Shown piece after piece: positions 2,361 through 53,534 of a stretch of DNA of 64,000 nt. The stretch spans positions 12,777 to 76,776 of the forward strand of contig FR881281.1 of NCBI GenBank assembly GCA_000434735.1, in the 5' to 3' direction. Under the pieces are notes generated by a model, which saw only the letters and a program-made list of their open reading frames with translations, was not told where the DNA came from and did no database searches. The stretch comes from Bacteroides sp. CAG:530. Lineage in GTDB: Bacteria; Bacteroidota; Bacteroidia; Bacteroidales; Bacteroidaceae. Position 1 is the first letter of the stretch. Each line of letters starts with the position of its first letter. A program made the translations under genes and the position numbers.

Positions 2361-3563
2361 TTAGAAAGCTGTCTTGAAGTTACCATCGTGCTGGTCTTTC
2401 AATGCCTGCTGATACTTGGCTTCTTTCTGAGCTGTAGTAATAGGCTCGATAGTCTGACCGTCTTTCAACTGCTGTACACCTTCTACTACAATCTTATCGC
2501 CCGACTTCAATCCGCCTGTTACCAAGTAAGTCTTACCGTCGTTCAGGTTAGATACGGTAATTTCTGTATGCTTAACTGTATTGTCAGACTGCAACACGAA
2601 GACGAATTTCTTGTCCTGAATTTCCTGAGTAGCCGACTGCGGGATAATGATAACATCGTTCAAAGTGTAAGGGAACATAATGTTAGCCATACCTCCACTG
2701 CGCAGAATGTTCTGCTTGTTAGGGAATACGGCACGCATGCTTACAGAACCTGTAGACTTATCGATTACACCACCTACAGCGTCAATCTTACCTTCTTCGC
2801 CGTAGATAGAGCCATCGGCCAACTGCAACTTAACCGCCGGCATCTTAGCCAACTGTTCTTTAATAGTGCCACCTGCCTTAGTCAAGGCCAACAACTGCTT
2901 TTCTGTCATTGAAAAGTATACATACATATCGCCAATCTGAGATACTGTAGTAAGAGCAGCACCCGAAGGACCTACCAACGCACCGATACGAGAAGGAATC
3001 ATACCGATAACACCGTCAGAAGGACTTGTTACAGTACAGAATCCCAAGTTCTGCTTAGCGGCAGCGTATGCAGCCTTTGCCTGAGCCAAACCAGCCTGAG
3101 CAGTCAAACGATTGTTAATAGCGGTTTGATATTCAAAATCGCTGATAATCTGCTGATCATGCAACATCTTCTTGTTCTGTTCTGTTTCGGTTATAGTACG
3201 AAGACTAGCCTCAGCCGACTTAACAGCCGCAGAAGCTTGGTCGAACGCAGCTTTATATTGTGTAGGGTCTATCTGAAAAAGAGCCTGTCCTTTACGTACG
3301 GTAGCACCTTCGTCTACACAAAGCTTCACGATGAAGCCAGATACCTGAGGACGGATTTCAATATCCTGCTTACCCTGAATAGTAGCTGGATATTGCTCTG
3401 TCTGAGAGCTGGATGTTACACTTACCGCTTCTACAGCGAATTGGTCATCACCCATTTTTCTACCGCCTTGGCCACCGCCACAAGCAGTCAGTACCGACAA
3501 GCCCAAAACCATCAGGGCAACTCGGTGAGAAGTAAATCTTCTGTTTTTGTAGTTCATATTCAT
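2361..3563 (-). CDS. RND efflux periplasmic adaptor subunit (membrane fusion protein, HlyD/AcrA family)
   Basis: 400-aa ORF with an N-terminal lipoprotein-like signal (LSVLTACGGG). It has long Ala/Gln-rich coiled-coil segments and a beta-barrel/lipoyl-like C-terminus typical of MFPs. It lies upstream of the RND permease. Confidence 0.85.
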   Translation of the reverse strand: MNMNYKNRRFTSHRVALMVLGLSVLTACGGGQGGRKMGDDQFAVEAVSVTSSSQTEQYPATIQGKQDIEIRPQVSGFIVKLCVDEGATVRKGQALFQIDPTQYKAAFDQASAAVKSAEASLRTITETEQNKKMLHDQQIISDFEYQTAINNRLTAQAGLAQAKAAYAAAKQNLGFCTVTSPSDGVIGMIPSRIGALVGPSGAALTTVSQIGDMYVYFSMTEKQLLALTKAGGTIKEQLAKMPAVKLQLADGSIYGEEGKIDAVGGVIDKSTGSVSMRAVFPNKQNILRSGGMANIMFPYTLNDVIIIPQSATQEIQDKKFVFVLQSDNTVKHTEITVSNLNDGKTYLVTGGLKSGDKIVVEGVQQLKDGQTIEPITTAQKEAKYQQALKDQHDGNFKTAF

Positions 3564-3890
3564 ATTCAGATAATTAATGTTTCCTTTTTCTCCTTAAAAA
3601 CAGCTGGAATCTATCGGTATTACTAATACCTACATTGAAAACTTTTCGATACCGCTCAGTTTTTAACGGTGCAAAGATAAGTATTTTCAATACTCTTACA
3701 CAACTGTTTAACTAACAATAACCATAAAAAAACGGGGTGTTATTACACATAGGCAAAATAATCTGATGAATAGACATTTTTTATCGACCAATTCTTACGG
3801 CTCTTTATTATAATCTTATTTAGAACAACGCATTGCAAAAGCCGACAATCCGCGAAAGAAAAATCGGCTTATTAAAAGAAAAACTCTATC

Positions 3891-3970
3891 CCTAGCCTAA
3901 GTATATATATTCTTAAGCTAAGTTTATATATACCTAGGCTAAGTTTATATATCTTTAGGCTAAAGATAGA
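3891..3970. repeat. ~3.5 tandem copies of a 22-bp unit (consensus YTAGGCTAAGTTTATATAT + 2-3 nt), locus A
   Basis: Direct reading gives cctagcctaagtatatatattc / ttaagctaagtttatatatacc / taggctaagtttatatatctt / taggctaaagataga. It lies in the 640-bp divergent intergenic region between the RND adaptor and maeB. It is homologous to the array at 42200..42292. Confidence 0.7.
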
Positions 3971-4082
3971 GAATTGAATAAGAGAAAACAGGTTTTCATT
4001 CGCAAAAGAGAGAAGTTTCAATCCTGACATTCTAAAGTTGCCATAGCCGTACATTTTGGTTATATTACATATTTTTATACGA

Positions 4083-4090: not shown

Positions 4091-4202
4091 TAACATTTAT
4101 CTTTTTTTGGGAGCTAAAATGCTACTATTTATTATTTTATTCCTACTTTTGCGATTCACATTACGATACAATACAAAGAAAACTTTAAACTTATTTATAA
4201 TT

Positions 4203-6485
4203 ATGGCAAAAATAACCAAAGAAGCTGCACTGCTTTATCACTCGCAAGGCAGACCAGGAAAAATTGAGGTAATACCAACCAAACCTTACCAAACACAGAG
4301 AGACTTGTCGCTGGCTTACTCGCCAGGTGTAGCCGAGCCATGTCTGGAAATCCAGAAAGACCCGGAAACCGCTTACGACTATACCGATAAAGGTAACTTG
4401 GTAGCTGTTATTTCTAACGGCACCGCAGTATTGGGCTTAGGAGATATAGGCGCATTGAGCGGAAAGCCTGTAATGGAAGGTAAAGGACTGCTTTTTAAAA
4501 TATATGCCGGAATTGATGTATTCGACATAGAAGTAAACGAAAAAGACCCGGATAAATTCATCGAAGCCGTAAAAGCCATCGCTCCTACCTTCGGTGGTAT
4601 CAATCTGGAAGATATAAAGGCTCCTGAGTGCTTCAAGATAGAACAGCGTCTGAAAGAAGAACTCGACATTCCGGTTATGCACGATGACCAGCACGGTACT
4701 GCCATCATCTCAAGCGCCGGACTGCTGAACGCCCTCGAAGTAGCGGGAAAGAAGATAGAAGATGTACACATAGTAGTAAACGGAGCCGGAGCTTCGGCTA
4801 CATCGTGCACTAAATTGTACATAGCCTTAGGTGCACGCAAAGAGAATATCTTGATGCTAGACAGTAAAGGTGTAATCACTTCCGACCGTGAAAACCTGAC
4901 TGAAAGCAAGAAGTTCTTCGCTACCGACCGCCGCGACGTACATACACTTGAAGAAGCTATCAAGGGCGCTGACGTATTCTTGGGTCTTTCTAAGGGTAAC
5001 GTACTTACACAGGATATGATACGTAGCATGGCAAGCCATCCTATCGTATTCGCACTGGCCAACCCTACCCCAGAAATATCTTACGAAGACGCTATGGCTT
5101 CACGCCCAGACGTATTGATGTCTACCGGACGTTCGGATTATCCTAACCAGATTAATAATGTAATCGGATTCCCATATATATTCCGTGGTGCACTAGATAC
5201 CCGCGCTACCGCCATCAATGAAGAGATGAAACTGGCAGCCGTACACGCCATCGCAGCATTGGCAAAGAAGCCCGTGCCCGATGTAGTGAACAACGCTTAT
5301 CATGTGAACAACTTTACATTCGGTCCATCTTATTTCATCCCGAAACCAGTAGACCCACGTCTTATTACCGAAGTTTCTATGGCTGTGGCTAAAGCGGCTA
5401 TGGAATCGGGTGTAGCACGTAAACAAATTACCGACTGGTCGGCTTACGAACACCAGTTGCGCGAGTTGATGGGACAAGAAAACAAACTTACCCGCCAACT
5501 TTACGCTATGGCTCGCCGCGATCCGCAACGTGTAGTATTTGCCGAAGGTATTCACCCCAATATGCTGAAGGCTGCCGTAGAAGCAAAAGCTGAAGGTCTG
5601 TGCAAACCTATCCTTCTTGGCAACGAAGAGCGTATCGAGAAATTGGCTAAAGAACTCGACTTGAGCTTGGAAGGTATAGAAATAGTAAACTTACGCCACG
5701 ACCGTGAAGCAGAACGTCGTGAACGCTATGCTCGTATTCTCTGCGAAAAACGTGCTCGCGAAGGTGCCAACTATCAGGAAGCGAACGATAAGATGTTCGA
5801 GCGCAACTACTTCGGTATGATGATGGTAGAAACAGGAGACGCTGATGCATTTGTAACAGGACTTTACACCAAGTACTCTAACACTATCAAGGTAGCGAAA
5901 GAAGTTATCGGCATCCAGCCGGGATACAAGCACTTCGGAACAATGCATATCCTGAACTCTAAGAAAGGTACTTACTTCATTTCGGATACATTGATTAACC
6001 GTCACCCCGATACCGATACGCTGATAGACATAGCTAAACTTACAGATAAGGCTGTACGCTTCTTCAATCAGGAGCCGGTTATGGCTATGTTGTCGTACTC
6101 TAACTTCGGTTCAGACACAGAAGGAAGCCCTGCCAAGGTACACGAGGCCGTAGCCTATATGCAACAGGAATATCCTGAATTGGCTATCGACGGCGAAATG
6201 CAAGTTAAGTTTGCGCTGAACAACGCTTTACGCGACGAGAAATATCCGTTTACCCGCCTCAAAGGAAAAGAAGTGAATACGCTGATATTCCCTAACCTTA
6301 GCTCGGCCAACTCAACATACCAACTCATCCAGAGCATGAGCGACGCCGAAGTATTAGGTCCTATCCAAATGGGTCTTAACAAACCTATTCACTTTACCGA
6401 CATCGAAAGCTCGGTTCGAGATATCGTGAATATCACTGCTATCGCTTGCATCGATGCTATCGTTGCCAAGAAATTAAACAAATAA
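4203..6485 (+). CDS. maeB: NADP-dependent malic enzyme (malic enzyme domain fused to a phosphotransacetylase-like C-terminal domain)
   Basis: The ORF 4056..6485 has an implausible hydrophobic leader. The in-frame ATG at 4203 (MAKITKEAALLYHSQGRPGKIEV...) matches the MaeB N-terminus. It has malic enzyme motifs (VISNGTAVLGLGDIG, NGAGASA) and a long C-terminal PTA-like domain. Confidence 0.9.
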   Translation: MAKITKEAALLYHSQGRPGKIEVIPTKPYQTQRDLSLAYSPGVAEPCLEIQKDPETAYDYTDKGNLVAVISNGTAVLGLGDIGALSGKPVMEGKGLLFKIYAGIDVFDIEVNEKDPDKFIEAVKAIAPTFGGINLEDIKAPECFKIEQRLKEELDIPVMHDDQHGTAIISSAGLLNALEVAGKKIEDVHIVVNGAGASATSCTKLYIALGARKENILMLDSKGVITSDRENLTESKKFFATDRRDVHTLEEAIKGADVFLGLSKGNVLTQDMIRSMASHPIVFALANPTPEISYEDAMASRPDVLMSTGRSDYPNQINNVIGFPYIFRGALDTRATAINEEMKLAAVHAIAALAKKPVPDVVNNAYHVNNFTFGPSYFIPKPVDPRLITEVSMAVAKAAMESGVARKQITDWSAYEHQLRELMGQENKLTRQLYAMARRDPQRVVFAEGIHPNMLKAAVEAKAEGLCKPILLGNEERIEKLAKELDLSLEGIEIVNLRHDREAERRERYARILCEKRAREGANYQEANDKMFERNYFGMMMVETGDADAFVTGLYTKYSNTIKVAKEVIGIQPGYKHFGTMHILNSKKGTYFISDTLINRHPDTDTLIDIAKLTDKAVRFFNQEPVMAMLSYSNFGSDTEGSPAKVHEAVAYMQQEYPELAIDGEMQVKFALNNALRDEKYPFTRLKGKEVNTLIFPNLSSANSTYQLIQSMSDAEVLGPIQMGLNKPIHFTDIESSVRDIVNITAIACIDAIVAKKLNK

Positions 6486-12168: not shown

Positions 12169-13560
12169 TTAGATTACACGTATAGCATCTGCAGGAATAG
12201 TAATACCCACATGGTCGCCATCATCCCATACGTCATTAGTATCGACAAATACATTCTCGTCCCAATCGGAACATACGGTAAGGTGGTAATGATTTCCTTT
12301 ATAAAGTATGAATTTCACTTCGCCAGTCAGCATGCCGTCTTCCGCATTATCCTGCAAAATGATTTTATCGAAATCGACCTCTACCTTTACATGCCCCCAG
12401 TCGCACGAAGCATCGCTCATGTCCACACGAGGACATTCAAACGTACAACCCAAGAATTCCACGTGAGTTTCGTCTACCATAGCAGCTTCGAACTCGTTGC
12501 ATGTACGCTCTTTATGCATGATATGTATATCGAACGGCTTAACCAGCAAGCCGACTTCAGTTCCTGCCTCAAACGCATGATAGTCTTGTACCAAGAGTTC
12601 GTAATCGTCTACCAAAACCGTCATTTCATAATGCACACCTTTAAATATGCACGACTGCACTACTCCGCGCAGCTGAGCCATGTCTGAAACAGGGAATATA
12701 TATAAGTCTTCGGGGCGAACCACAACATCCACCGGTACATCGTTACCGAAGTTCTTATCTACGCACTCAAAATCGTGTCCGCAGAAACGAACCAAGCAAT
12801 CGTGAACCATAGTACCGTTCAAGATGTTACTTTCACCAATAAAGTCGGCTACGAAAGAGTTGGTAGGTTCATTATATATATCTATAGGAGTACCTATCTG
12901 CTGAATGCGTCCTTCGCTCATTACCACTATAGTATCGCTCAGCGTAAGAGCCTCTTCCTGATCGTGAGTTACATACACAAACGTAATACCAAGACGCTTA
13001 TGCATCTCCTTCAACTCCATCTGCATATCCTTACGCATCTTCAAGTCGAGCGCCGCCAATGGTTCGTCGAGCAACAACACCTCCGGTTCATTTACAATAG
13101 CACGGGCTATGGCAACACGCTGTTGCTGACCTCCCGACAAAGAGTTCACATCGCGATATTCATAGTCGGTCATTCCCACCATGCGTAACGCCACCTTTAC
13201 TTTCTTTTCGATTTCCGGTTTCGACATTTTCTTCAGCTTCAAGCCAAAAGCGATATTGTCGAACACATTAAGATGAGGGAATAAGGCGTACTTCTGGAAC
13301 ACCGTATTCACAGGACGACGGTGCGGAGGTGTTTGGGTAATCTCCTTACCGCCAATATATATTTCACCCTCCGACGCTGTCTGAAAACCAGCTATTAACC
13401 GCAGAAGCGTAGTCTTACCACAACCCGAAGGACCTAATATAGTTACAAACTCACCTTTTCGGATAGACAAGTTCACATTGTCCAATGCGGTCTTTTCTCC
13501 AAAGAATTTAGACACACTCTTTACTTCGATGATTGGTTTGTTCTCTGCTTGCATAAACAT
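12169..13560 (-). CDS. potA: spermidine/putrescine ABC transporter ATP-binding protein with extended C-terminal regulatory domain
   Basis: Walker [10 protein letters not shown], signature [14 protein letters not shown], Walker B LLLDEP. 463 aa, longer than E. coli PotA. Confidence 0.9.
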
Positions 13561-13684
13561 TTATAAATTACGGGCTGCAAAGGTACATATTATATAGCGT
13601 TTAGAATGTAGTTTATCGAATTTTATTTCATTTTATGCATATAATTGCATTCATTTGTACTTTTGCATATTTTATACCCGATAT

Positions 13685-14788
13685 TTACTTATCGTGTATA
13701 GCATAGAAATATGTGTCGAGCAAGCGTTTAGCCGCCGAAAAAGAGGTTACACTTCCTTGCAACACTGCGTCTTCTTCGCTGCGAAGCATCGACGCTATAT
13801 TAGGATTATTATAGAAACTATCGCGCAATTGTTCTTCTATGGTTTCATACATCCAATACTTTGACTGCTCGTTACGGCGATATTGGAAATAACCATTGGC
13901 TTTAACGAAATCGAAGTAGCTGTATATCATATCCCATACCTCCTTAATGCCAAAACCATAGAAGCCCGAGTAAGTAAGTACTTGAGGAGTCCATCCGGAT
14001 TCTGGCGCAGGGAACAAATGCAACGCATTGCGGAAATGAGCAGCCGCCAACTTCGCCTTTTCTATATTGCTTCCGTCGGCCTTGTTGATTACGATGCCAT
14101 CCGCCATCTCCATAATACCGCGCTTTATGCCCTGCAGCTCATCGCCGGTACCTGCCAACTGGATAAGCAAAAAGAAATCTACCATTGAGTGGACTGCCGT
14201 TTCACTCTGCCCCACTCCAACCGTTTCTACGAATATCTTATCGAATCCGGCGGCTTCGCATAATATAATGGTTTCGCGTGTCTTTCTTGCCACACCGCCT
14301 AACGAGCCGGCGGTTGGACTAGGACGTATAAATGAATCTGGATGAACAGACAACTTCTCCATGCGGGTCTTGTCGCCTAGAATACTACCTTTAGAGCGTT
14401 CACTACTTGGGTCGATAGCCAACACAGCCAACTTACCACCACGTTCAAGCACATGCAGTCCGAAGACATCGATAGACGTACTTTTTCCCGCTCCGGGCAC
14501 TCCACTAATACCGATACGGATAGAATTGCCGGAATAAGGCAAACATTTCTCTATCACCTCTTGAGCCAATGCCTGATGTTCGGGCTTAACACTCTCTACA
14601 AGCGTAACAGCCTGACTTAGCACCGTTATATCGCCCTTTACTATACCTTCTACATACTCTCCTGCCGTAAAAGTCCGGCGGTGAGGCCGTTTACGCAAGT
14701 TGAGATACGGGTTTATTATACCGGGCTGCTCAATACCCTTATTGACAGCCAGTCCTTTATATTCTTCACTGTTTTCGGGGTGTTCCAT
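13685..14788 (-). CDS. meaB: methylmalonyl-CoA mutase-associated GTPase MeaB/ArgK family
   Basis: P-loop GVPGAGKST, G-protein motifs (DPSS, NKAD), size 367 aa. Confidence 0.85.
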   Translation of the reverse strand: MEHPENSEEYKGLAVNKGIEQPGIINPYLNLRKRPHRRTFTAGEYVEGIVKGDITVLSQAVTLVESVKPEHQALAQEVIEKCLPYSGNSIRIGISGVPGAGKSTSIDVFGLHVLERGGKLAVLAIDPSSERSKGSILGDKTRMEKLSVHPDSFIRPSPTAGSLGGVARKTRETIILCEAAGFDKIFVETVGVGQSETAVHSMVDFFLLIQLAGTGDELQGIKRGIMEMADGIVINKADGSNIEKAKLAAAHFRNALHLFPAPESGWTPQVLTYSGFYGFGIKEVWDMIYSYFDFVKANGYFQYRRNEQSKYWMYETIEEQLRDSFYNNPNIASMLRSEEDAVLQGSVTSFSAAKRLLDTYFYAIHDK

Positions 14789-14809
14789 AATATCTTCAGT
14801 ATTTTCAGG

Positions 14810-15886
14810 TTATTTCTTTATAGTGGCCTTTACTCTTATCACTACCGAAGGCGACGCTGGGTCATTGGTTATCATCAACACACGCGGTACACCTTTTACG
14901 CGAGGCAAGTTTTCAGTCAATACGGTTATTTTCATTTTTGTAGATTCGCCAGGCTTCAATACAGTCTTCTTCAATTTTACAGCCAAGGCTATATTAAAGA
15001 CTTGCATATCTTGTATCGTCAAATCCGACTTCCCGGTATTGGTGATAATGACTGTCTGCGATTTTTTCTGATGAGGATTCAAATCGAGAAACTCAACTTT
15101 AGTAGACGACAGAGAGATATGCGGCGGATTCTTCTTCTGTAATTCTGTCTGGTTAGAAAAATCGGGAAGCAGTACGGCAGAAACCGGAATTTCGTTTTCA
15201 GCACTTACCTTATCGCCCGAGAAGCGAGACAGATATACCGAAGCACGTGTAATACCAAATTTGGGAAGTTTGTCGGTATCAAGCGTAACTTTTATAACGC
15301 CATTCTTACCGCGTCCCAATGTTTCTGGTTCGGCTTTCGCACTTAAATAAGGAGGCAAGTGCATAAGCACCGGCTGGTATGCCTTACTCGATGTGTTGGC
15401 AACCAACAATGTCACCTCTGGATTCTCACCTTTATATACATTGTCGAATTCTATCTCGTCTTTATCCAAGCGAATAGCTCCGAATCCTACGGGATGAGTG
15501 AACGAATAGTTCTTTGAATCGGCGGTAACCTCACCGTTAAACTCCACATATAAAGGCATATCCGACGCATTACAATAAATGCCTAACTCTTTATAAAAAT
15601 GTCCTATCGCCTTTGCGTCGAAAACAGCGGTTACACTGCCTTTTCCACCTGCCGGGATGGGCGACTTTGTCCATTCTACATCGGTACATCCGCAAGAGGA
15701 ATATACTTTAGATATTACAAGAGGCTTATTGCCGGTGTTGGTGAAATTATATGTTATCGTTACTGGCTTGTTCCACAATACGTACCCCAACTCCTGAACT
15801 TTCTTATCAAATTCTATTTTAGGCTGGGCATACAAGGCCAAGCTTAACATCGACAGTAAACCAAATATATATAATGTGCGCTTCAT
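14810..15886 (-). CDS. DUF1573-family secreted protein
   Basis: The ORF 14810..15946 has an implausible N-terminus; the internal Met (MKRTLYIFGLLSMLSLALYAQ) gives a clean signal peptide. There are repeated beta-sandwich-like segments with CGC motifs as in DUF1573. The stop is 21 bp from the meaB start. Confidence 0.65.
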   Translation of the reverse strand: MKRTLYIFGLLSMLSLALYAQPKIEFDKKVQELGYVLWNKPVTITYNFTNTGNKPLVISKVYSSCGCTDVEWTKSPIPAGGKGSVTAVFDAKAIGHFYKELGIYCNASDMPLYVEFNGEVTADSKNYSFTHPVGFGAIRLDKDEIEFDNVYKGENPEVTLLVANTSSKAYQPVLMHLPPYLSAKAEPETLGRGKNGVIKVTLDTDKLPKFGITRASVYLSRFSGDKVSAENEIPVSAVLLPDFSNQTELQKKNPPHISLSSTKVEFLDLNPHQKKSQTVIITNTGKSDLTIQDMQVFNIALAVKLKKTVLKPGESTKMKITVLTENLPRVKGVPRVLMITNDPASPSVVIRVKATIKK

Positions 15887-23412: not shown

Positions 23413-23516
23413 CAAAGTTGTCTTACTTCGACCGAAGTAAGCACGTTGACCGTTCGATGTGAACGTTTACTTCGGTCGAAGTAAGCGTTCACATCGGTCG
23501 AAGTAAGACGACTTTG
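23413..23516. repeat. 104-bp complex nested palindromic element built on CTTACTTCG/CGAAGTAAG 9-mers
   Basis: The outer 22-bp arms (caaagttgtcttacttcgaccg / cggtcgaagtaagacgactttg) match with 1 mismatch. Inner palindromes are cttacttcgaccgaagtaag and gatgtgaacg..tttacttcggtcgaagtaag..cgttcacatc. It lies between the metF stop and the upstream gene start. Confidence 0.65.
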
Positions 23517-30852: not shown

Positions 30853-31896
30853 ATGAAAAAGAAAAAAATTGTAACGTTCGGTGAAATAATGCTCCGCCTT
30901 ACTACTCCTGACAACTTGCGTATACAGCAGAGTCACGATTTCTTAGTAAGCTATGGAGGTAGTGAAGCCAACGTGGCCATCTCTATCGCGAACTTTGGTG
31001 GAGACGTGGATTACATCACTCGTCTACCCGACAATGCGTTGGGAGAAACTTGTTTGTCTGAACTCCGTTCGCACAATATCGGTACACAGAATATCCTTAT
31101 CGGAGGTAAACGTCTTGGTACTTATTATATGGAAAAAGCTGCTGCCATGCGTAACTCTAAAGTGATTTACGACCGCGACGGTTCTGCTTTCTCTGAATTA
31201 AAACCGGGCATGATAGATTGGAAAGAAGTATTTAAAGATGCCGATATTTTCCACTGGTCGGGTATCGACGCAGCTCTTACTCCTGGCTTGGCAGATGTAT
31301 GTCATGAGGCTATCGTTGCTGCAAAAGAAATGGGATTGCAGGTTTCGTACGATATCAACTACCGCAAGAACTTGTGGAACTACGGAAAGACTGCTCAGGA
31401 AGTTCTTCGTCCGCTGTCTCAAGAAAGCGATATCATGTTTGGTAGCGAAGGCGAATACGCTATGCTGACAGGCATCCCTGCTCCGGGCTTCAAGGCTACA
31501 CGAAACGGAGAGGCTTACGACTTGAAGGCATACGAGGAATTCTGCAAGGCTATCAGCGCACAGATTCCAAATTGCAAGTACATTTATATAGCATTGCGTA
31601 ACGTGATGAGTTCTGAACATCACACATTTGCCGGTGTATTGTACTCTAACGGAACAATGAAGCATAGCCGTGTGTTCGATATCGACAACGTGATAGACTG
31701 TGTAGGTGTGGGCGACGCTTTCTGCGGAGCCATGCTGTACGCTCAGCGCGCTTTCGAAGACGAGCAGAAGCGAGTTGATTTCTCTACTGCCGCATCGGTA
31801 TTGAAGAATACCATCGCCGGCGACTATAACATGGTTAAGGTAGCAGAAGTTGAAGGACTTCTTGCAAAGAGTGAAAGCGGAGAAGTAGCACGATAA
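30853..31896 (+). CDS. PfkB-family carbohydrate kinase (2-dehydro-3-deoxygluconokinase-like)
   Basis: The start is taken at the internal MKKKKIVTFGEIMLRL. Ribokinase-fold motifs include GGSEANVA and the C-terminal DCVGVGDAFCGAMLYA. The upstream 60 nt of the ORF-track entry is not credible. Confidence 0.8.
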   Translation: MKKKKIVTFGEIMLRLTTPDNLRIQQSHDFLVSYGGSEANVAISIANFGGDVDYITRLPDNALGETCLSELRSHNIGTQNILIGGKRLGTYYMEKAAAMRNSKVIYDRDGSAFSELKPGMIDWKEVFKDADIFHWSGIDAALTPGLADVCHEAIVAAKEMGLQVSYDINYRKNLWNYGKTAQEVLRPLSQESDIMFGSEGEYAMLTGIPAPGFKATRNGEAYDLKAYEEFCKAISAQIPNCKYIYIALRNVMSSEHHTFAGVLYSNGTMKHSRVFDIDNVIDCVGVGDAFCGAMLYAQRAFEDEQKRVDFSTAASVLKNTIAGDYNMVKVAEVEGLLAKSESGEVAR

Positions 31897-31975
31897 AATT
31901 CCTTTCGTAGAAGGAATTGATTCCTCTCGCAAAAGGAACGCATTCCTATCTAAGAAGGAATAACGCCAAATAAGC

Positions 31976-32013
31976 AAACACCCCTTGCCCAAACGCACGG
32001 ACAAGGGGTGTTT
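31976..32013. terminator. bidirectional rho-independent terminator
   Basis: aaacaccccttg ... caaggggtgttt (12-bp GC-rich stem). Confidence 0.7.
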
Positions 32014-37984: not shown

Positions 37985-40900
37985 ATGAAAAACCGTATCT
38001 ATACCATCGTATTACTGACCTTGTGCTTTTGCCTTAATATAACAATGGCACAAGGTGCTGGTCATTCTAAAGATAACCTGCATTTTTCTCATATCTCTAT
38101 CAATAACGGGTTGTCGCAGAACACTATATTCGCCATCGCGCAAGATGCCAAAGGCTATATGTGGTTTGCTACGCACAATGGGGTCAACAAATACGATGGA
38201 TACGATTTTACTATCTATCAGAATAATCCGCAAGATTCTACCACCATAGCAAACGATATTATCCGCACGTTGGTGACCGACGACAAAGGACGCGTATGGA
38301 TAGGAACCGAAAGCGGTTTATCGTATTACAACGAAGAAAGAGACATCTTTGAGAATTTCTACTTAAAGAATAGCAAAACAGCTACGGTTTCAAGCATAGT
38401 CACGCTGTCCGACTCGCAACTATTGGTCAACGCCGAGGGACAACTTTACAGTTTCGACGCTAAGAGCAAGGCATTCTCACAACAGACATTGCCTACCGAC
38501 CTGCTGCAACTCAACGTAACCGCCCTTTACCGTACCGCACAAAGCATATATATAGGTACTGCCGAAAACGGAGTTTTCGTGTGGGATTATAAGGGCAAGC
38601 GCATTCAGCGTTTAAGCCTCAGCATAAGACACCGCATACAAGCACTTTTGCTGCAAAATCCAAGCACGCTATGGATTGCGACTGAGGGAGAAGGCTTATA
38701 CCGACTCAACCCACAAACCGGAGAGCAGAAACATTATGTACATTCGTACAATGAAGGCGATATCAGCTCAAACTTTATTCGTGCCTTATCAGTTGATACA
38801 AAAGGTTATTTATGGATAGGTACTTTCAATGACCTTAACGTGTATCATGAAAGTAGCGATAAGTTCACTGCCTACACACATAACCCCATCGACCCAGAAA
38901 GTTTGAGTCAGCGTTCGGTGCGCTGCATCTACAAGGATTCGCAGGGAGGTATGTGGCTCGGCACGTACTTTGGCGGTATTAACTATTATCACCCGCTAAA
39001 GAACCGCTTCCGAAATATACAGCGACTAACATATAAGAAGCAACTGAACGACAATGTGGTAAGTTGCATAGTAGAAGATAGTAAGCACAACTTATATATA
39101 GGTACCAACGATGGCGGCGTAAACTACTACGACCCGCATACCGATGAGGTTACTTACTATACTTTCAACAACAAACAAAGTCCCGTAGTAGAATCTAACA
39201 ACGTGAAATGTATCTCTATCGACGAGAAAAGGAACGTAGTGTACGTAGGTACCCACGCTGGAGGAATAAAGATAATACACCGTGCCGGAGGCAACATAGA
39301 ACATTGCTATAGCGAGAATAATCCATCGGCAACACAGAACATTTATTCACTGCTGCCGTATAAGGATAACATGCTATGGGCAGGAACATTAAACGGACTG
39401 TACCTGTTCAATAAAGACAGCAAAACATTTACGGCTGTAGATAAAGATGTTAACGGCAATGAGATTCCAGACGAACAGATTAACATCTTATTCCAGGATT
39501 CAAAGCGAAGACTTTGGATTGGAGGTAAAAACAGTCTGACTGTATATAAGATAACAGACAACGGACTGAAAGCCATAAAGATTTCTATCGACGGCTTCAA
39601 CAACATTGTAGCGGTACAAGACATTCACGAAGATGAAGAACATTGTCTATGGTTCTGTACGCAATGGGGACTTTACAAGCTGGATAGAGAAAAGCACGTT
39701 ATCACTCATTACACCACCAAAAACGGACTGCCCAACAATGTGATATACGGCATAGAAGAAGACTCTTACCATCATCTTTGGCTCAATACCAACCACGGAT
39801 TGAGTTGCCTCAACCCATCGAACGGACAATTCAGAAACTTCTCCGTAAACGACGGACTGCAGAGTAACCAGTTTAATCCGCACTCGCACTGCCGCACTGC
39901 CGACGGAAGCTTATACTTCGGAGGCATAAACGGAATTTCAACATTCCGTCCAGAACTGCTTACGTTCAACCCATTTACGCCAAAGCCGTTCTTTACTAAA
40001 TTCTACCTATATAATAAGGAGGTACATCCGGGCGACGAAAGCGGAATACTTAGCAAGAACATTTCAGATACTGATTTCAGATACTGAAAAGATTGTCTTG
40101 AAGCCGTCGCAACGCGCCTTTACACTGGAGTTTGTAGTAACCAACTTCATATCCGGACAGCATAACACGTTCTCTTATCAGCTGGAAGGTTATGACAAGG
40201 AATGGTATTACCTTAAAGGACATCAGCGAAGCGTATCGTACTCTAACCTGCCCGCAGGAACGTACCGTTTCCTAGTGAAAGCTGCCAATAACGACGGACA
40301 TTGGAGCAGCGAACCCGCCATGCTTACCATCAAGGTGCTGCCCGTATGGTATGCTACTTGGTGGGCGATACTGTTATTCGTTATCATAACGGTAGCGTTG
40401 ATGGCTATTATATTACGTTATTTCTGGGAACGGAAGTCGATGGAAGCACGCCTGAAACTTGAACAGAAAGAGAAATTGCACCAAGAAGAGATAGCACAGA
40501 TGAAGATGCGTTTCTTCATCAACATTTCGCATGAGTTGCGTACTCCGCTTACTCTTATCTTGGCGCCGATACAAGATATGCTGGCTAAAACTACCGATAA
40601 ATGGATGAAAGAGCAGTTGAACTACGTAAACCGTAACGCCAATCGCTTGCTCAACCTTGTAAATCAGTTAATGGACTACAGAAGAGCTGAGCTGGGAGTG
40701 TTTAAGCTAAAGGTAGAGCATACATGTATATATAAGACAGTAAAAGAAAACTTCATGTTCTACGAAAAGTTGGCTCGTACCAAGAACTTGGAGTATACGT
40801 TAATTTCAGATATAGAAGATAAGGAATGCTATGCCGACCCTAAATACGTAGAGCTTATACTGAACAACTTGCTGTCTAACGCCTTTAAATATACCGAAAA

Positions 40901-42056
40901 AGGTAGTATCACTGTTCGCCTCACCATAAAGGACGACCAACTGCAGCTGGAAGTAAGCGATACAGGATGCGGTATAGAGCAAGACAAGCACAAGCGAATA
41001 TTCGAACGCTTCTATCAGCTTAAGAACAACTATGTAGGTAGCGGTATCGGACTCTCATTGGTAGAGCGTTTGGTGGAATTGCATCACGGACATATAGAAT
41101 TGGTAAGCGAAAAGGGCAAAGGTAGTATATTTACCATCTATCTGCCGCAGAACCCTAACGCATACGCCGAAAACGAATTCTATGGCAGCAGCGAAGATGC
41201 GGAACCAGAAGAAGTACACTCTACCAACTCTAAAGAGATGTATATCATAAACACCGAGAAAGACGACAACACCACAGAAGAAGATACCGACAATAAGAAA
41301 GGATGTATCCTTGTGGTAGAAGACAACGAAGAGATACGCCATTATCTATATAGCGGATTACAGCCCAACTTCTGCATAAAACAGGCAGCCAACGGTGCCG
41401 AAGCACTCGACATTCTGAAGGATACACAGGTAGATATCGTGATAACCGATGTCATGATGCCAGTAATGGATGGTATAAAACTATGTAAGCAGATAAAGCA
41501 GAACATTGTAACCAGCCATATACCTGTTATCATCCTTTCGGCTAAGACCGATGTGAACGATCAGATGCAGGCCATGCAGACTGGAGCCGATGACTACATA
41601 GCCAAGCCGTTCTCGCTTAGCGTGCTAATAGCCAAAGTGCAGAACCGCATGCGCACTCGTGCCCGCATGATAGAGCATTACGCAAAATCAGCCGAGGTAG
41701 ACCCTGAAAAGATAACCTTCAACGCTATGGACGAGAAGTTACTGAAACGCGCCGTCGAAGTAGTGAAGGCCAATATGGATAATCCAGAATTCTCTGCCGA
41801 AGAGTTTGCACGCAATATGAATATGAGTCGCTCTAACCTTCACCTGAAGTTGAAAGGCGTAACCGGAGAATCGGCTATAGAGTTCATACGCAAGATTCGT
41901 TTTAACGAAGCTTGCCGCTTGCTGCGCGAAGGACAATACAGTATTTCCGAGATAAGCAGCATGGTTGGTTTCAACACACCGTCATACTTCTCTACGGTAT
42001 TCAAGAAGTACATGGGTTGCTTGCCTACAGAATACGTTAAGAAAGGCAACCGATAA
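37985..42056 (+). pseudogene. hybrid two-component system sensor kinase/response regulator (HTCS; beta-propeller + Y_Y_Y + TM + HisKA/HATPase + REC + AraC-HTH), interrupted by a +1 frameshift caused by a 13-bp tandem duplication
   Basis: ORF 37985..40087 (700 aa) carries the periplasmic propeller repeats and ends NISDTDFRY*. ORF 40098..42056 (652 aa) starts in the +1 frame with Y_Y_Y, TM, HELRTPL, HATPase, REC (VVEDNEEIR...DVMMP) and the AraC HTH. Deleting one of the two ATTTCAGATACTG copies at 40061-40086 joins them as ...NISDTEKIVLKPSQRAFTLEF... It starts 4 nt after the tatC stop. Confidence 0.75.
40061..40086 (+). repeat. perfect 13-bp tandem duplication (ATTTCAGATACTG x2) inside the HTCS gene
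   Basis: The copies lie at 40061-40073 and 40074-40086. The length is not a multiple of 3, and the duplication creates TGA at 40085-40087. Confidence 0.9.
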
Positions 42057-42100
42057 TACGGCAGTCACAAGATTCTGTAAAAAACAACCAAGTTAATATG

Positions 42101-42142
42101 CGCTATGCCGCACGTCAACCAACGTGCGGCATAGCGTTTTTT
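42101..42142 (+). terminator. strong rho-independent terminator after the HTCS gene
   Basis: cgctatgccgcacg ... cgtgcggcatagcg (14-bp stem, 8-nt loop) + T6. Confidence 0.8.
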
Positions 42143-42199
42143 CGTATCTGTAATTGTCAAAAAACTTGCGAATAAAAGTTTGTTTTCTTTTATTCAATT

Positions 42200-42292
42200 C
42201 TATAAACTTAGCCTAAGAATATGTATACTTAGCCTAAGTTTATATATTCTTAGTTTAAGTTTTTATATACTTAGGCTAAGTTTATAGAATTC
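42200..42292. repeat. 4 copies (first inverted) of the 22-bp TTAGGCTAAGTTTATATAT unit, locus B
   Basis: Units are ctataaacttagcctaag (inverted), cttagcctaagtttatatattc, ttagtttaagtttttatatac and ttaggctaagtttatagaattc. The three direct units align copy-for-copy with 3891..3955 at roughly 85-90 % identity. It lies between the HTCS terminator and the PUL promoter. Confidence 0.7.
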
Positions 42293-42510
42293 ATGCCAAG
42301 CAATCAGCTTTTTCATCGCATGCCATCACACTTTCCACAAACATTGCCACAGCATTTACACATCACAAAACACTGATAAACAAGTGCTCTAAACATACGT
42401 ATAATCGCATTTTGCACAATTTTAAAAGTTCTCAAAACAAATGTTGCATTGATTGTACGATATTATGGAAAAGAAAAGTTATCTTTACGATACATACAAA
42501 CGTTAACCTA

Positions 42511-42518
42511 TAACTTTG
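42511..42518 (+). promoter_or_regulatory. candidate -7 promoter element (TAnnTTTG) for the PUL operon
   Basis: taactttg lies 45 nt upstream of the first PUL gene ATG (42563). Confidence 0.35.
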
Positions 42519-52211: not shown

Positions 52212-53534
52212 ATGAAAAAACTGATTGCATTTGCTGCGGCAGCCATTGCTCTTGCCTCATGCCAGACTCAACCAAAAGAAGATTACAGCTGGATTAAAAA
52301 CGGACTTGATGTAGCACAACAGCAACTGATGCTTGCTGCTCACGAAGCTGAAGGAACAGGTAAATTGCCTCGTACTACTTATCAGAGTTACGACATGAAC
52401 TTCCTCTGCGAACAGTTGGAAAGAGATTCTGCAACATTTAAAGACTCATTGCGTCAGTCTGCTCCTGCCGAAAAAGTAGGAAAGATGAAACTCTGCACAG
52501 TGAAAGACTGGACAAGCGGATTCTTCCCAGGTTCTTTATGGTATGCATACGAATTGACAGGAAATGACTCGTTGAAAACAGAGGCTATAGAATATACTAA
52601 CTTGCTGAACCCAGTACGCTATTATAGAGGTACTCACGACTTGGGCTTCATGATTAACTGCAGCTATGGTAACGCACTTCGTCTTACCAAGAACGATACA
52701 ATTGCTGCAGTAATGCACGAAACCGCCGATAACCTCTGCAGCCGATTCAACGAAGGTATCGGTTGTATCCGTTCATGGGACTTCGGTACATGGAATTTCC
52801 CGGTTATCATCGACAACATGATGAACCTCGACTTGCTCTTCACTGTAAGCAAACTTACAAACGACGATAAATATAAAAACGTTGCTATCACCCACGCTAA
52901 CACTACCATGAAAAATCACTTCCGTCCGGACTACACTTCATGGCACGTAGTAAGCTATAACAATGACGGTACAGTAGAACGCAAACAGACTTTCCAAGGA
53001 AAGAACGACGACTCTGCATGGAGCCGCGGCCAGGGATGGGGCGTATACGGATATACAGCTTGCTTCCGTGAAACAAACGATTCTACTTACTTGAAATTCG
53101 CATGCAATATTGCAGATATGATTATGAGCCGTGTTAAGACAGACGACGCTATTCCTTACTGGGATTATATGGCTCCTGTAACTCCTGAAACTCCGCGCGA
53201 CGCATCGGCTGCAGCTGTTACAGCTTCTGCCATGTTAGAACTTAGCACATTCGTTGCCGACGGACAGAAATACTTTGACTACGCAGAAAAGATTCTGAAG
53301 AGTTTGTCGAGCGACGCTTATTTGGCTAAGCCAGGCACAAACGGCGGCTTCATCTTGATGCACTCTACAGGTTCTTTGCCTAACGGAAGTGAAATCGATG
53401 TTCCTTTGAACTATGCTGACTACTACTACTTGGAAGCTCTGAAGAGATACATGGATTTAAAGCACATTTCATACAAAATACATGGATTTGAAGCACATTT
53501 CATACAAAGACCTTTAATAATAAGTAATTCATGA
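52212..53534 (+). CDS. glycoside hydrolase family 88 (unsaturated glucuronyl hydrolase), lipoprotein; C-terminus altered by a 31-bp tandem duplication
   Basis: 440 aa with a lipobox (LASC) and GH88 alpha6/alpha6 motifs (SGFFPGSLWYAYELTG, RGQGWGVYGYTA). The last ~20 codons are read through a duplicated segment, and the stop overlaps the next gene's ATG (ATGA). Confidence 0.8.
   Translation: MKKLIAFAAAAIALASCQTQPKEDYSWIKNGLDVAQQQLMLAAHEAEGTGKLPRTTYQSYDMNFLCEQLERDSATFKDSLRQSAPAEKVGKMKLCTVKDWTSGFFPGSLWYAYELTGNDSLKTEAIEYTNLLNPVRYYRGTHDLGFMINCSYGNALRLTKNDTIAAVMHETADNLCSRFNEGIGCIRSWDFGTWNFPVIIDNMMNLDLLFTVSKLTNDDKYKNVAITHANTTMKNHFRPDYTSWHVVSYNNDGTVERKQTFQGKNDDSAWSRGQGWGVYGYTACFRETNDSTYLKFACNIADMIMSRVKTDDAIPYWDYMAPVTPETPRDASAAAVTASAMLELSTFVADGQKYFDYAEKILKSLSSDAYLAKPGTNGGFILMHSTGSLPNGSEIDVPLNYADYYYLEALKRYMDLKHISYKIHGFEAHFIQRPLIISNS
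53447..53508 (+). repeat. 31-bp tandem duplication (atacatggattt[a/g]aagcacatttcatacaaa x2, 30/31 identical) at the 3-prime end of the GH88 gene
   Basis: The copies lie at 53447-53477 and 53478-53508. 31 nt gives a +1 frame change, so the tail reads ...RYMDLKHISYKIHGFEAHFIQRPLIISNS* instead of ...RYMDLKHISYKDL*. Confidence 0.9.

Follow-up and report, generated by a model that had tools for sequence, protein, structure and literature searches.

Palindromic arrays upstream of maeB and a heparin utilisation locus are probably copies of a BOX-like, non-autonomous dispersed repeat

Results

Two copies of a four-module palindromic element

Two palindromic arrays in the window, by which we mean the whole 64-kb stretch of DNA that was analysed, are with a probability of about 0.8 copies of a dispersed repeat from one gut Phocaeicola-like species, a repeat that is non-coding and non-autonomous and is built of modules in the manner of BOX elements. 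The same element is found in at least 19 independent intergenic contexts with unrelated neighbours, and a regulator shared by the two loci, one of two readings offered in the original prediction, is therefore unsupported. The other reading, a small non-autonomous repeat family, is the one that holds: copies with shared arms are dispersed over unrelated intergenic regions.

Locus A lies between the divergent genes for an RND periplasmic adaptor (2361-3563, minus strand) and maeB, a malic enzyme/PTA fusion (4203-6485, plus strand; ATG at 4203). Locus B lies between the intrinsic terminator of a hybrid two-component sensor gene (42100-42137, plus strand; found by the terminator scan directly before copy B and kept in the sister-lineage contig L019) and a polysaccharide utilisation locus (PUL). 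The PUL is led by a heparinase II/III gene, followed by genes for a BT4661-like surface glycan-binding protein and a SusC-like (TonB-dependent) receptor. The gene and terminator calls agree with the contexts first assigned to the two loci, an RND efflux/maeB divergent region and the interval between sensor-gene terminator and PUL.

With up to three mismatches, the unit TTAGGCTAAGTTTATATA is matched 10 times in the 64-kb window against 0.09 matches expected, and all 10 fall at loci A and B, which confirms that the cassette is duplicated at two loci and is not a chance motif. The identity between 3891-3955 and 42228-42292, given originally as about 85-90%, is 83% (54/65) when measured. TRF places arrays at 3893-3963 and 42201-42286 with a period of 21 bp. 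Each module consists of an 11-bp palindrome, CTTAGSCTAAG, and a 10-bp AT spacer, WWTATATAWW (TTTATATATA-like). There are four modules at locus A, with palindromes starting at 3891, 3912, 3933 and 3954, and four at locus B, starting at 42207, 42228, 42249 and 42270. The units are thus in tandem, as predicted, with TRF and direct reading of the sequence giving four modules of 21 bp in place of three of 22 bp. The extra inverted copy described at locus B is simply the fourth module, since the modules are palindromic.

Because the entire array is an imperfect palindrome, A matches B equally well on both strands within it (60/74 identical positions over the four modules on either strand). The relative orientation is instead set by the flanks: the plus strand of A corresponds to the minus strand of B, with homology reaching about 45 bp past the array on each side and including the motif AGAATTGAATAARAGAAAACAnnnTTTYATTCGCAA. 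The full homologous unit is about 160 bp, at 3846-4006 and 42163-42326 (about 160-185 bp in the family), compared with the cassette of about 90 bp in the original prediction. The unit is non-coding and has a GC content of 27-30%, compared with 43% for the window.

Copy A (3846-4006) aligns with copy B and scores 132 bits on the plus strand and 86 bits on the minus strand against the nhmmer profile of the family. Its left arm (3846-3890, plus strand), GCGAAAGAAAAA ... AAGAAAAACTCTATC, fits the family consensus tTGCgAAgAAAAA-n-CAGAAAAACTaTAtA. The array (3891-3964, plus strand) comprises palindromes at 3891-3901, 3912-3922, 3933-3943 and 3954-3964, separated by the 10-bp AT spacers. The right arm (3965-4006, plus strand), GATAGAGAATTGAATAAGAGAAAACAGGTTTTCATTCGCAA, fits the consensus tATAGAGAaTTg.ATaAGAaAA..ATTTtt.ttcgcaa and is homologous to 42163-42206 on the minus strand in the A/B alignment. 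Copy B (42163-42326, minus strand) is inverted with respect to copy A and scores 126 bits on the minus strand and 99 bits on the plus strand. On the minus strand, its four 21-bp modules occupy 42207-42280, as given by TRF and sequence reading, and its right arm, including the outer part TTCGCAAGTTTTTTGACAATTAC, occupies 42150-42206. This outer part follows the consensus ATTCGCAAnyTTTnnnACAATTA, common to copies L033, L048, L094 and L077. The left arm of copy B (42281-42326, minus strand), ...GCGATGAAAAAGCTGATTGCTTGGCATGAATTCTATAAA, is degenerate when the copies are stacked and compared.

In the family as a whole, the left arm reads tTGCGAAgAAAAA, about 14 variable bases and then CAGAAAAACTCTATA, and the right arm reads TATAGAGAATTGAATAAGAAAAC ... 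ATTTTTnATTCGCAA, often followed by nyTTTnnnACAATTA. The arms form imperfect inverted repeats (TTGCGAAkAAAAA ... TTTTTmTTCGCAA; CTCTATA/TATAGAG). They are distinct from one another (CAGAAAAACTCTATA versus TATAGAGAATTGAATAAGAAAAC), and this asymmetry is seen in unrelated contexts. Many copies lack the outer parts of the arms or have them in degenerate form, and conservation is higher in the centre of the element than at its ends.

Bacteroidetes -7 boxes (TAnnTTTG) conserved in relatives are located 138-185 bp outside the two elements. A scan for such boxes found none inside either element, and scans for sigma-70 promoters and terminators also returned nothing there. The box of the RND adaptor operon, TATCTTTG (3672-3679, minus strand; pattern TANNTTTG), is 167 bp from the element edge in a block kept in L026 and L027. 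The maeB box, TACTTTTG (4144-4151, plus strand), is 138 bp from the edge and is kept as TACATTTG in L027. The box of the heparinase PUL, TAACTTTG (42511-42518, plus strand), is 185 bp downstream of the edge, in a block conserved with L019/L020, which have no element. For annotation, the element is best masked or labelled as a repeat, and neither the heparin PUL nor maeB should be assigned it as a regulatory motif.

Upstream of the heparin PUL, the gene for the hybrid two-component sensor is broken into open reading frames of 700 and 652 amino acids (37985-42056). A perfect 13-bp tandem duplication (ATTTCAGATACTG twice; junction at 40061-40087) shifts the frame, and the sister lineage L019/L020 has a single copy of the 13-mer and an intact gene of 1353 amino acids. 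The split gene is also found in other samples (L011 and L012), indicating that the PUL regulator is genuinely a pseudogene or a frameshift allele there.

The element occurs in many unrelated intergenic regions

Metagenome contigs were scanned with an exact two-module pattern. Of the 93 stretches returned, about 75 are true members of the family; all of these come from human-gut assemblies, and nearly all have exactly four modules. Clustering of the outer flanks by BLAST yields 32 flank-pair classes, with 19 copies whose flanks on both sides are independent of all others, although some of these 'independent' flanks may represent closely related species or assembly chimeras at the repeat (L013, L062). 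Up to six different element loci are present within single assemblies. A family nhmmer profile, built from 18 independent copies, finds exactly one copy at each family-bearing locus and none elsewhere in the approximately 1 Mb searched. The exact-pattern scan suggests 20-30 copies per genome, an estimate drawn from pooled metagenomes rather than from a closed genome.

All copies are intergenic. Of the 28 flank-pair classes that were scored, 9 place the element between divergent genes, 13 between tandem genes and 5 between convergent genes; in the remaining one, a flank has no open reading frame. Convergent pairs hold no promoter, indicating that placement of the element is unrelated to promoter geometry. 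The original prediction had named many copies without relation to promoters as the result that would count against a regulon, and about two dozen such loci are now observed. The functions of the neighbours are unrelated: they include a SocA-type antitoxin, a C-N hydrolase, HisH, an MFS transporter, a GntR regulator, a thioesterase, GH92, an IS5-like transposase, a serine resolvase, FeoB, the RND adaptor, malic enzyme and heparinase. None of the element-neighbour genes is paralogous to another.

The exact two-module pattern has no match in viral contigs, and the element has none in plasmid and phage collections. Among 185,579 species-representative genomes, in a scan that did not recover the source species, the pattern is matched only by a relative in Bacteroides cutis and by a Flavobacterium MAG, the latter probably by chance. 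The B. cutis relative (NZ_OEST01000005.1; L017 4745-4940, also L038) has two modules, CTTAGGCTAAG-N10-CTTAATCTAAG. It is centred in a palindrome of about 200 bp, where TTCATTCTAAACTTCCTTTTTATTGCTTGCAAACTTTT and its complement form nearly perfect outer arms of 38 bp and the inner arms resemble the family motif ATAGAATT..AAGAAAA.

The RND adaptor of the window is 79-80% identical to that of P. coprophilus, and another family-bearing contig encodes a FeoB with 83% identity to the P. coprocola protein. The host of the family is an uncultured human-gut Phocaeicola-like bacterium. Small dispersed repeats are little described in gut Bacteroidales, and in a literature search the family did not turn up for either Bacteroides or Phocaeicola. 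It may already be listed in the large MITE catalogues that exist for Bacteroidota (PMC11602168).

Divergence, loss and probable copying

Arrays at different loci have a mean identity of 81%, a divergence of about 19%, and the arms are about 55% identical between copies compared with 28% for distant flanks. Across copies, 21-bp blocks at the same position are more similar (0.821) than other blocks (0.767), a value reached in 0 of 500 label permutations. These position-specific module signatures indicate that the element spread as a complete four-module unit, without local expansion. Variation in the palindrome consists mostly of G/A and C/T transitions at positions 3, 5, 7 and 9. Within the species, the element is 96-99% identical and the intergenic flanks 94-100%, arguing that there is no extra constraint on the element.

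The number of modules is three rather than four in L005, L007, L067, L069, L078 and L114. In L005 and L007, which are conspecific contigs covering locus A, exactly one 21-bp module has been lost between direct repeats; such changes probably occur by slippage or unequal exchange between the repeats. The polymorphism of three or four modules provides a ready strain marker. The original prediction had asked whether the cassette is polymorphic in presence, and the element does vary between relatives as a whole. Copy B is absent in the sister lineage L019/L020 (heparinase 87% identical), where the window species has about 170 extra bases; in L019/L020 the sensor and heparinase genes are about 110 bp closer together, and conservation is kept in the proximal 250 bp, which include the promoter. 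Copy A is represented in a sister-lineage contig, L026 (adaptor 88% identical), by a decayed ortholog of 62% identity.

The element in L059 and L088 is 158 bp long, differs at three positions (98% identity) and is located in wholly different flanks, the outcome of either recent copying or flank replacement. In this pair, the only near-identical one in different flanks, no clear target duplication is seen. The 'empty' site in L019 is too diverged to be aligned for a target-site duplication.

We propose that copies arose through occasional transposition-like or recombination-mediated copying. The most likely driver would be a trans-acting protein. Its most plausible binding sites would be the four palindromes, which are evenly phased at two helical turns, by analogy with the multiple subterminal sites at transposon ends. 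Should maeB, the RND operon or the heparin PUL be affected at all, this would be a by-product, for instance of DNA bending or a cruciform upstream of promoters. Among the IS elements near copies, none is an autonomous partner with matching ends, their terminal repeats being unrelated, and the pattern matches are all solitary elements of three or four modules. The near-constancy of four modules despite about 19% divergence could reflect selection on array geometry and not neutral hitch-hiking. The fixed, helically phased four-module core would offer a good starting point toward the protein that recognises it.

Near feoB, contig L130 of the family-bearing species (12990-13175 and 13180-15047) carries two apparent tRNA genes, judged by eye, and directly downstream of them an IS (DUF772 and DDE_Tnp_1) with 25-bp terminal inverted repeats that are unrelated to the family.

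Four contigs (L013, L016, L026 and L062) start, end or switch context inside the element or array. Several loci have alternative flanks on one side, each with multiple long contigs: classes (12,13)/(12,40), (25,26)/(27,26)/(27,41), (4,5)/(4,22) and (46,47)/(46,48). The feoB copy, for example, has either META or a 233-aa protein as neighbour. The breakpoints fall at the element edge, about 35 nt from the array. These alternative flanks could result from repeat-mediated deletion or rearrangement, or from assembly chimeras. In L045, a low-coverage contig of locus A, a variant of copy A has an L033-type right arm, GAATTGAATAAGAAAAACCGAACTTCTATTCGCAAGCTTTACCACAATTA, followed by the normal locus-A flank, which suggests gene conversion between copies or a chimera. 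In practical terms, the element breaks or mis-joins metagenome assemblies, with some contigs ending in the array and L013 and L062 chimeric. Since several loci have alternative flanks abutting the element, the family would also make it possible to ask whether elements of this type influence rearrangement.

Alternative explanations

The arrangement of the array recalls an operator, on which dimers of a shared transcription factor would line up along the same helical face, placing maeB, the RND operon and the heparin PUL under common control. The dyad symmetry of the 11-bp cores, their exact 21-bp phasing and the position of both window copies upstream of promoters are all consistent with this idea, as is the start codon of a left neighbour transcribed away from the array, often 190-350 bp distant. 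We nevertheless consider it improbable. At least 19 independent loci have unrelated neighbours, five convergent pairs contain no promoter, and distances are variable. In L019/L020 the element is missing from locus B despite conservation of the proximal promoter block, and P. coprocola has none upstream of feoB. Conservation is no higher than in the flanking intergenic DNA, the elements are 138-185 bp upstream of the conserved -7 boxes and not at them, and positions 5 and 7 of the module vary freely by transitions, which is unexpected for a tight operator. The unrelated contexts, the convergent pairs, the absence in L019/L020 and the lack of extra conservation leave the shared regulator of the original prediction unsupported. 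A transcribed structured RNA is very improbable, be it a small RNA, a hairpin that stabilises mRNA or a terminator built from the long palindrome. Copy B does fold as a hairpin of about 96 nt with -56.9 kcal/mol (z = -9.5), copy A has a z-score of -3.4 with DNA parameters, and one strand of many copies has a T-run (TTTTTCTG) after the hairpin. However, both copies fold because the DNA is palindromic. In three pairing schemes (inside single modules, between neighbouring half-modules and over the full palindrome), paired positions show fewer double changes than independence would give, with no compensatory changes. A search of the whole window against Rfam 15 gave no hits at the gathering threshold, and at E <= 10 the loci produced only sub-threshold microRNA-hairpin noise. 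The window copies are upstream of -7 boxes, copy B follows a separate terminator, and the right-hand neighbours, 13 on the plus and 15 on the minus strand in the 28 flank classes, show no terminator-like placement. The unbiased orientation of neighbours also led us to reject a terminator made from the T-run after the left arm.

A vertically inherited, REPIN-like element, selected through a genome-encoded, sequence-specific protein that acts on the four phased palindromes, is unlikely in our judgement, though it would explain several observations. Such a protein might have been domesticated from a transposase or recombinase, or might belong to the nucleoid, and its co-evolution with the element could produce species-specific modules at conserved positions. 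Such selection is consistent with a module count near-constant at four across about 19% divergence, with retention of copy A at the orthologous site in a sister lineage, and with the similar arm motifs of the two-module relative in B. cutis. It is also consistent with the different four-module palindromic arrays, of 21-22-bp period, that related lineages have upstream of maeB, heparinase and hisH (L027-29, L021/22 and L032). These arrays cannot be aligned with the CTTAGSCTAAG family, though, so that they are at most putative orthologues, and L019/L020 and P. coprocola (at feoB) have no array at the corresponding sites. Within-species divergence looks neutral, the modules do not carry the GTAG/CGTC tag of REPs, no candidate protein was found, and the neighbours examined include no Y1 transposase. 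The inverted arrangement of A and B, with the conserved right arm facing inward, raises the further idea that they bound a segment of 38 kb (3.9-42.3 kb) that is mobile or invertible. Alternatively, they could be iterons from a replication or partition site; a row of four sites, each about 21-22 bp, is reminiscent of Tn7-type right ends and plasmid iterons. Both ideas are extremely improbable: gene order is conserved across both junctions (RND adaptor-maeB in L027-29; sensor-heparinase in L019/L020), each of more than 20 other loci has a single copy, no plasmid, phage or viral match was obtained, and the neighbours are chromosomal housekeeping genes. We therefore favour the dispersed, non-autonomous repeat.

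Comparison with known repeat classes

BOX elements of S. pneumoniae (boxA - boxB(n) - boxC) have two end modules and a tandem internal module that varies in number between strains (PMC3049150). The dispersed repeat described here is likewise small, non-coding and intergenic, has distinct end modules around a variable-number tandem module, and could form a long hairpin. Like BOX, it has no transposase of its own and was once suspected of being regulatory from its position near genes (PMC3049150). It differs in belonging to another phylum, in its 21-bp palindromic internal module (boxB is about 45 bp), in a module number nearly fixed at four (0 to many for boxB) and in having about two dozen copies where BOX has more than 100; terminal inverted repeats and target-site duplications are reported for BOX. 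The two are presumably unrelated in sequence, and their modules differ in size.

With MITEs such as Correia/NEMIS of Neisseria, RUP and ERIC the element shares a length of 100-200 bp, AT-richness, imperfect palindromy, intergenic location and presence or absence between lineages. At about 160-185 bp, non-coding and in multiple dispersed copies, it is within the small (<300 bp) size class by which MITEs are defined. What counts against a classical MITE is that the centre and not the termini is best conserved; no clear target-site duplication was seen in the L059/L088 pair and no cognate IS near copies, and Correia/NEMIS, RUP and ERIC do not contain an internal tandem array with four phased palindromes.

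REPs are imperfect palindromes of 20-40 bp tagged GTAG or CGTC (PMC3733652). REP, BIME and REPIN sequences resemble the element in having short palindromic units in intergenic arrays, a species-restricted sequence and possible vertical retention (copy A in L026). Because the GTAG/CGTC tag is absent, the element is not a REP; in addition, the arms of the unit are only 5 bp long, and copies number tens rather than hundreds. No RAYT was identified, and no Y1 transposase is encoded by the neighbours examined.

The likeness of the element to the right end of Tn7, the ends of Mu and the iterons of plasmids and phages is one of geometry only, namely three or four contiguous protein-binding sites spaced by about 21-22 bp. 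In those systems the sites are directional and lie beside transposition or replication genes, whereas the element described here has palindromic modules and stands alone in intergenic DNA of the chromosome.

Other palindromic arrays in related lineages and in the window

Arrays with other modules occur in the same kinds of intergenic region as the family occupies in the window species. In L027-29, a four-module array of the CTCGCCGGAG type is found upstream of maeB, about 125-210 nt upstream of the -7 box. In L021/L022 (3680-3760), a four-module CTCGCCGGAG/CTCGGGACG array is upstream of the heparinase gene; in L021 it is flanked by arms of the TGCGAAGAGGCTAAAAA type, which resemble the outer arm of the CTTAGSCTAAG family. 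A four-module array of the AAACAGAG-TTCTGTTT type adjoins hisH in L030-32, and in L032 (1629-1713, AAACAGAGnTTCTGTTT) it is placed between hisH and a MatE gene; hisH also adjoins a copy of the CTTAGSCTAAG family in L034. These different arrays are mutually unalignable. At feoB, a further locus at which the persistence of arrays was tested, P. coprocola has none.

One could imagine a superfamily in Phocaeicola and Bacteroides, with four palindromic modules phased at 21 bp, arms of the GCGAA...TTCGC type and species-specific modules kept at orthologous sites, in which a REPIN-like, sequence-specific partner protein co-evolves with the element and selection acts on the geometry of the array, not on its sequence. 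The arrays of the related lineages could point to it, but we regard it as unlikely. Other, unrelated 22-bp hairpin arrays are present in the window, and arrays of this kind may therefore simply be common in long intergenic regions.

One of these, at 23423-23507, has a 22-bp period and a REP-like look, with GC-richer hairpins CTTACTTCGaCCGAAGTAAG alternating with GTTCACATCGgtCGA..., and is positioned between two minus-strand genes. Another, at 31898-31961, consists of three tandem 20-nt hairpins (ATTCCTTTCGTAGAAGGAAT-like, period 22) directly after a stop codon at 31896 and precedes a terminator-like GC hairpin at about 31980-32010. Finally, a 31-bp unit, ATACATGGATTTAAAGCACATTTCATACAAA, is tandemly duplicated with 96% identity at 53447-53508, near the 3' end of the open reading frame at 52212-53534 and just before the start of the next one at 53531.
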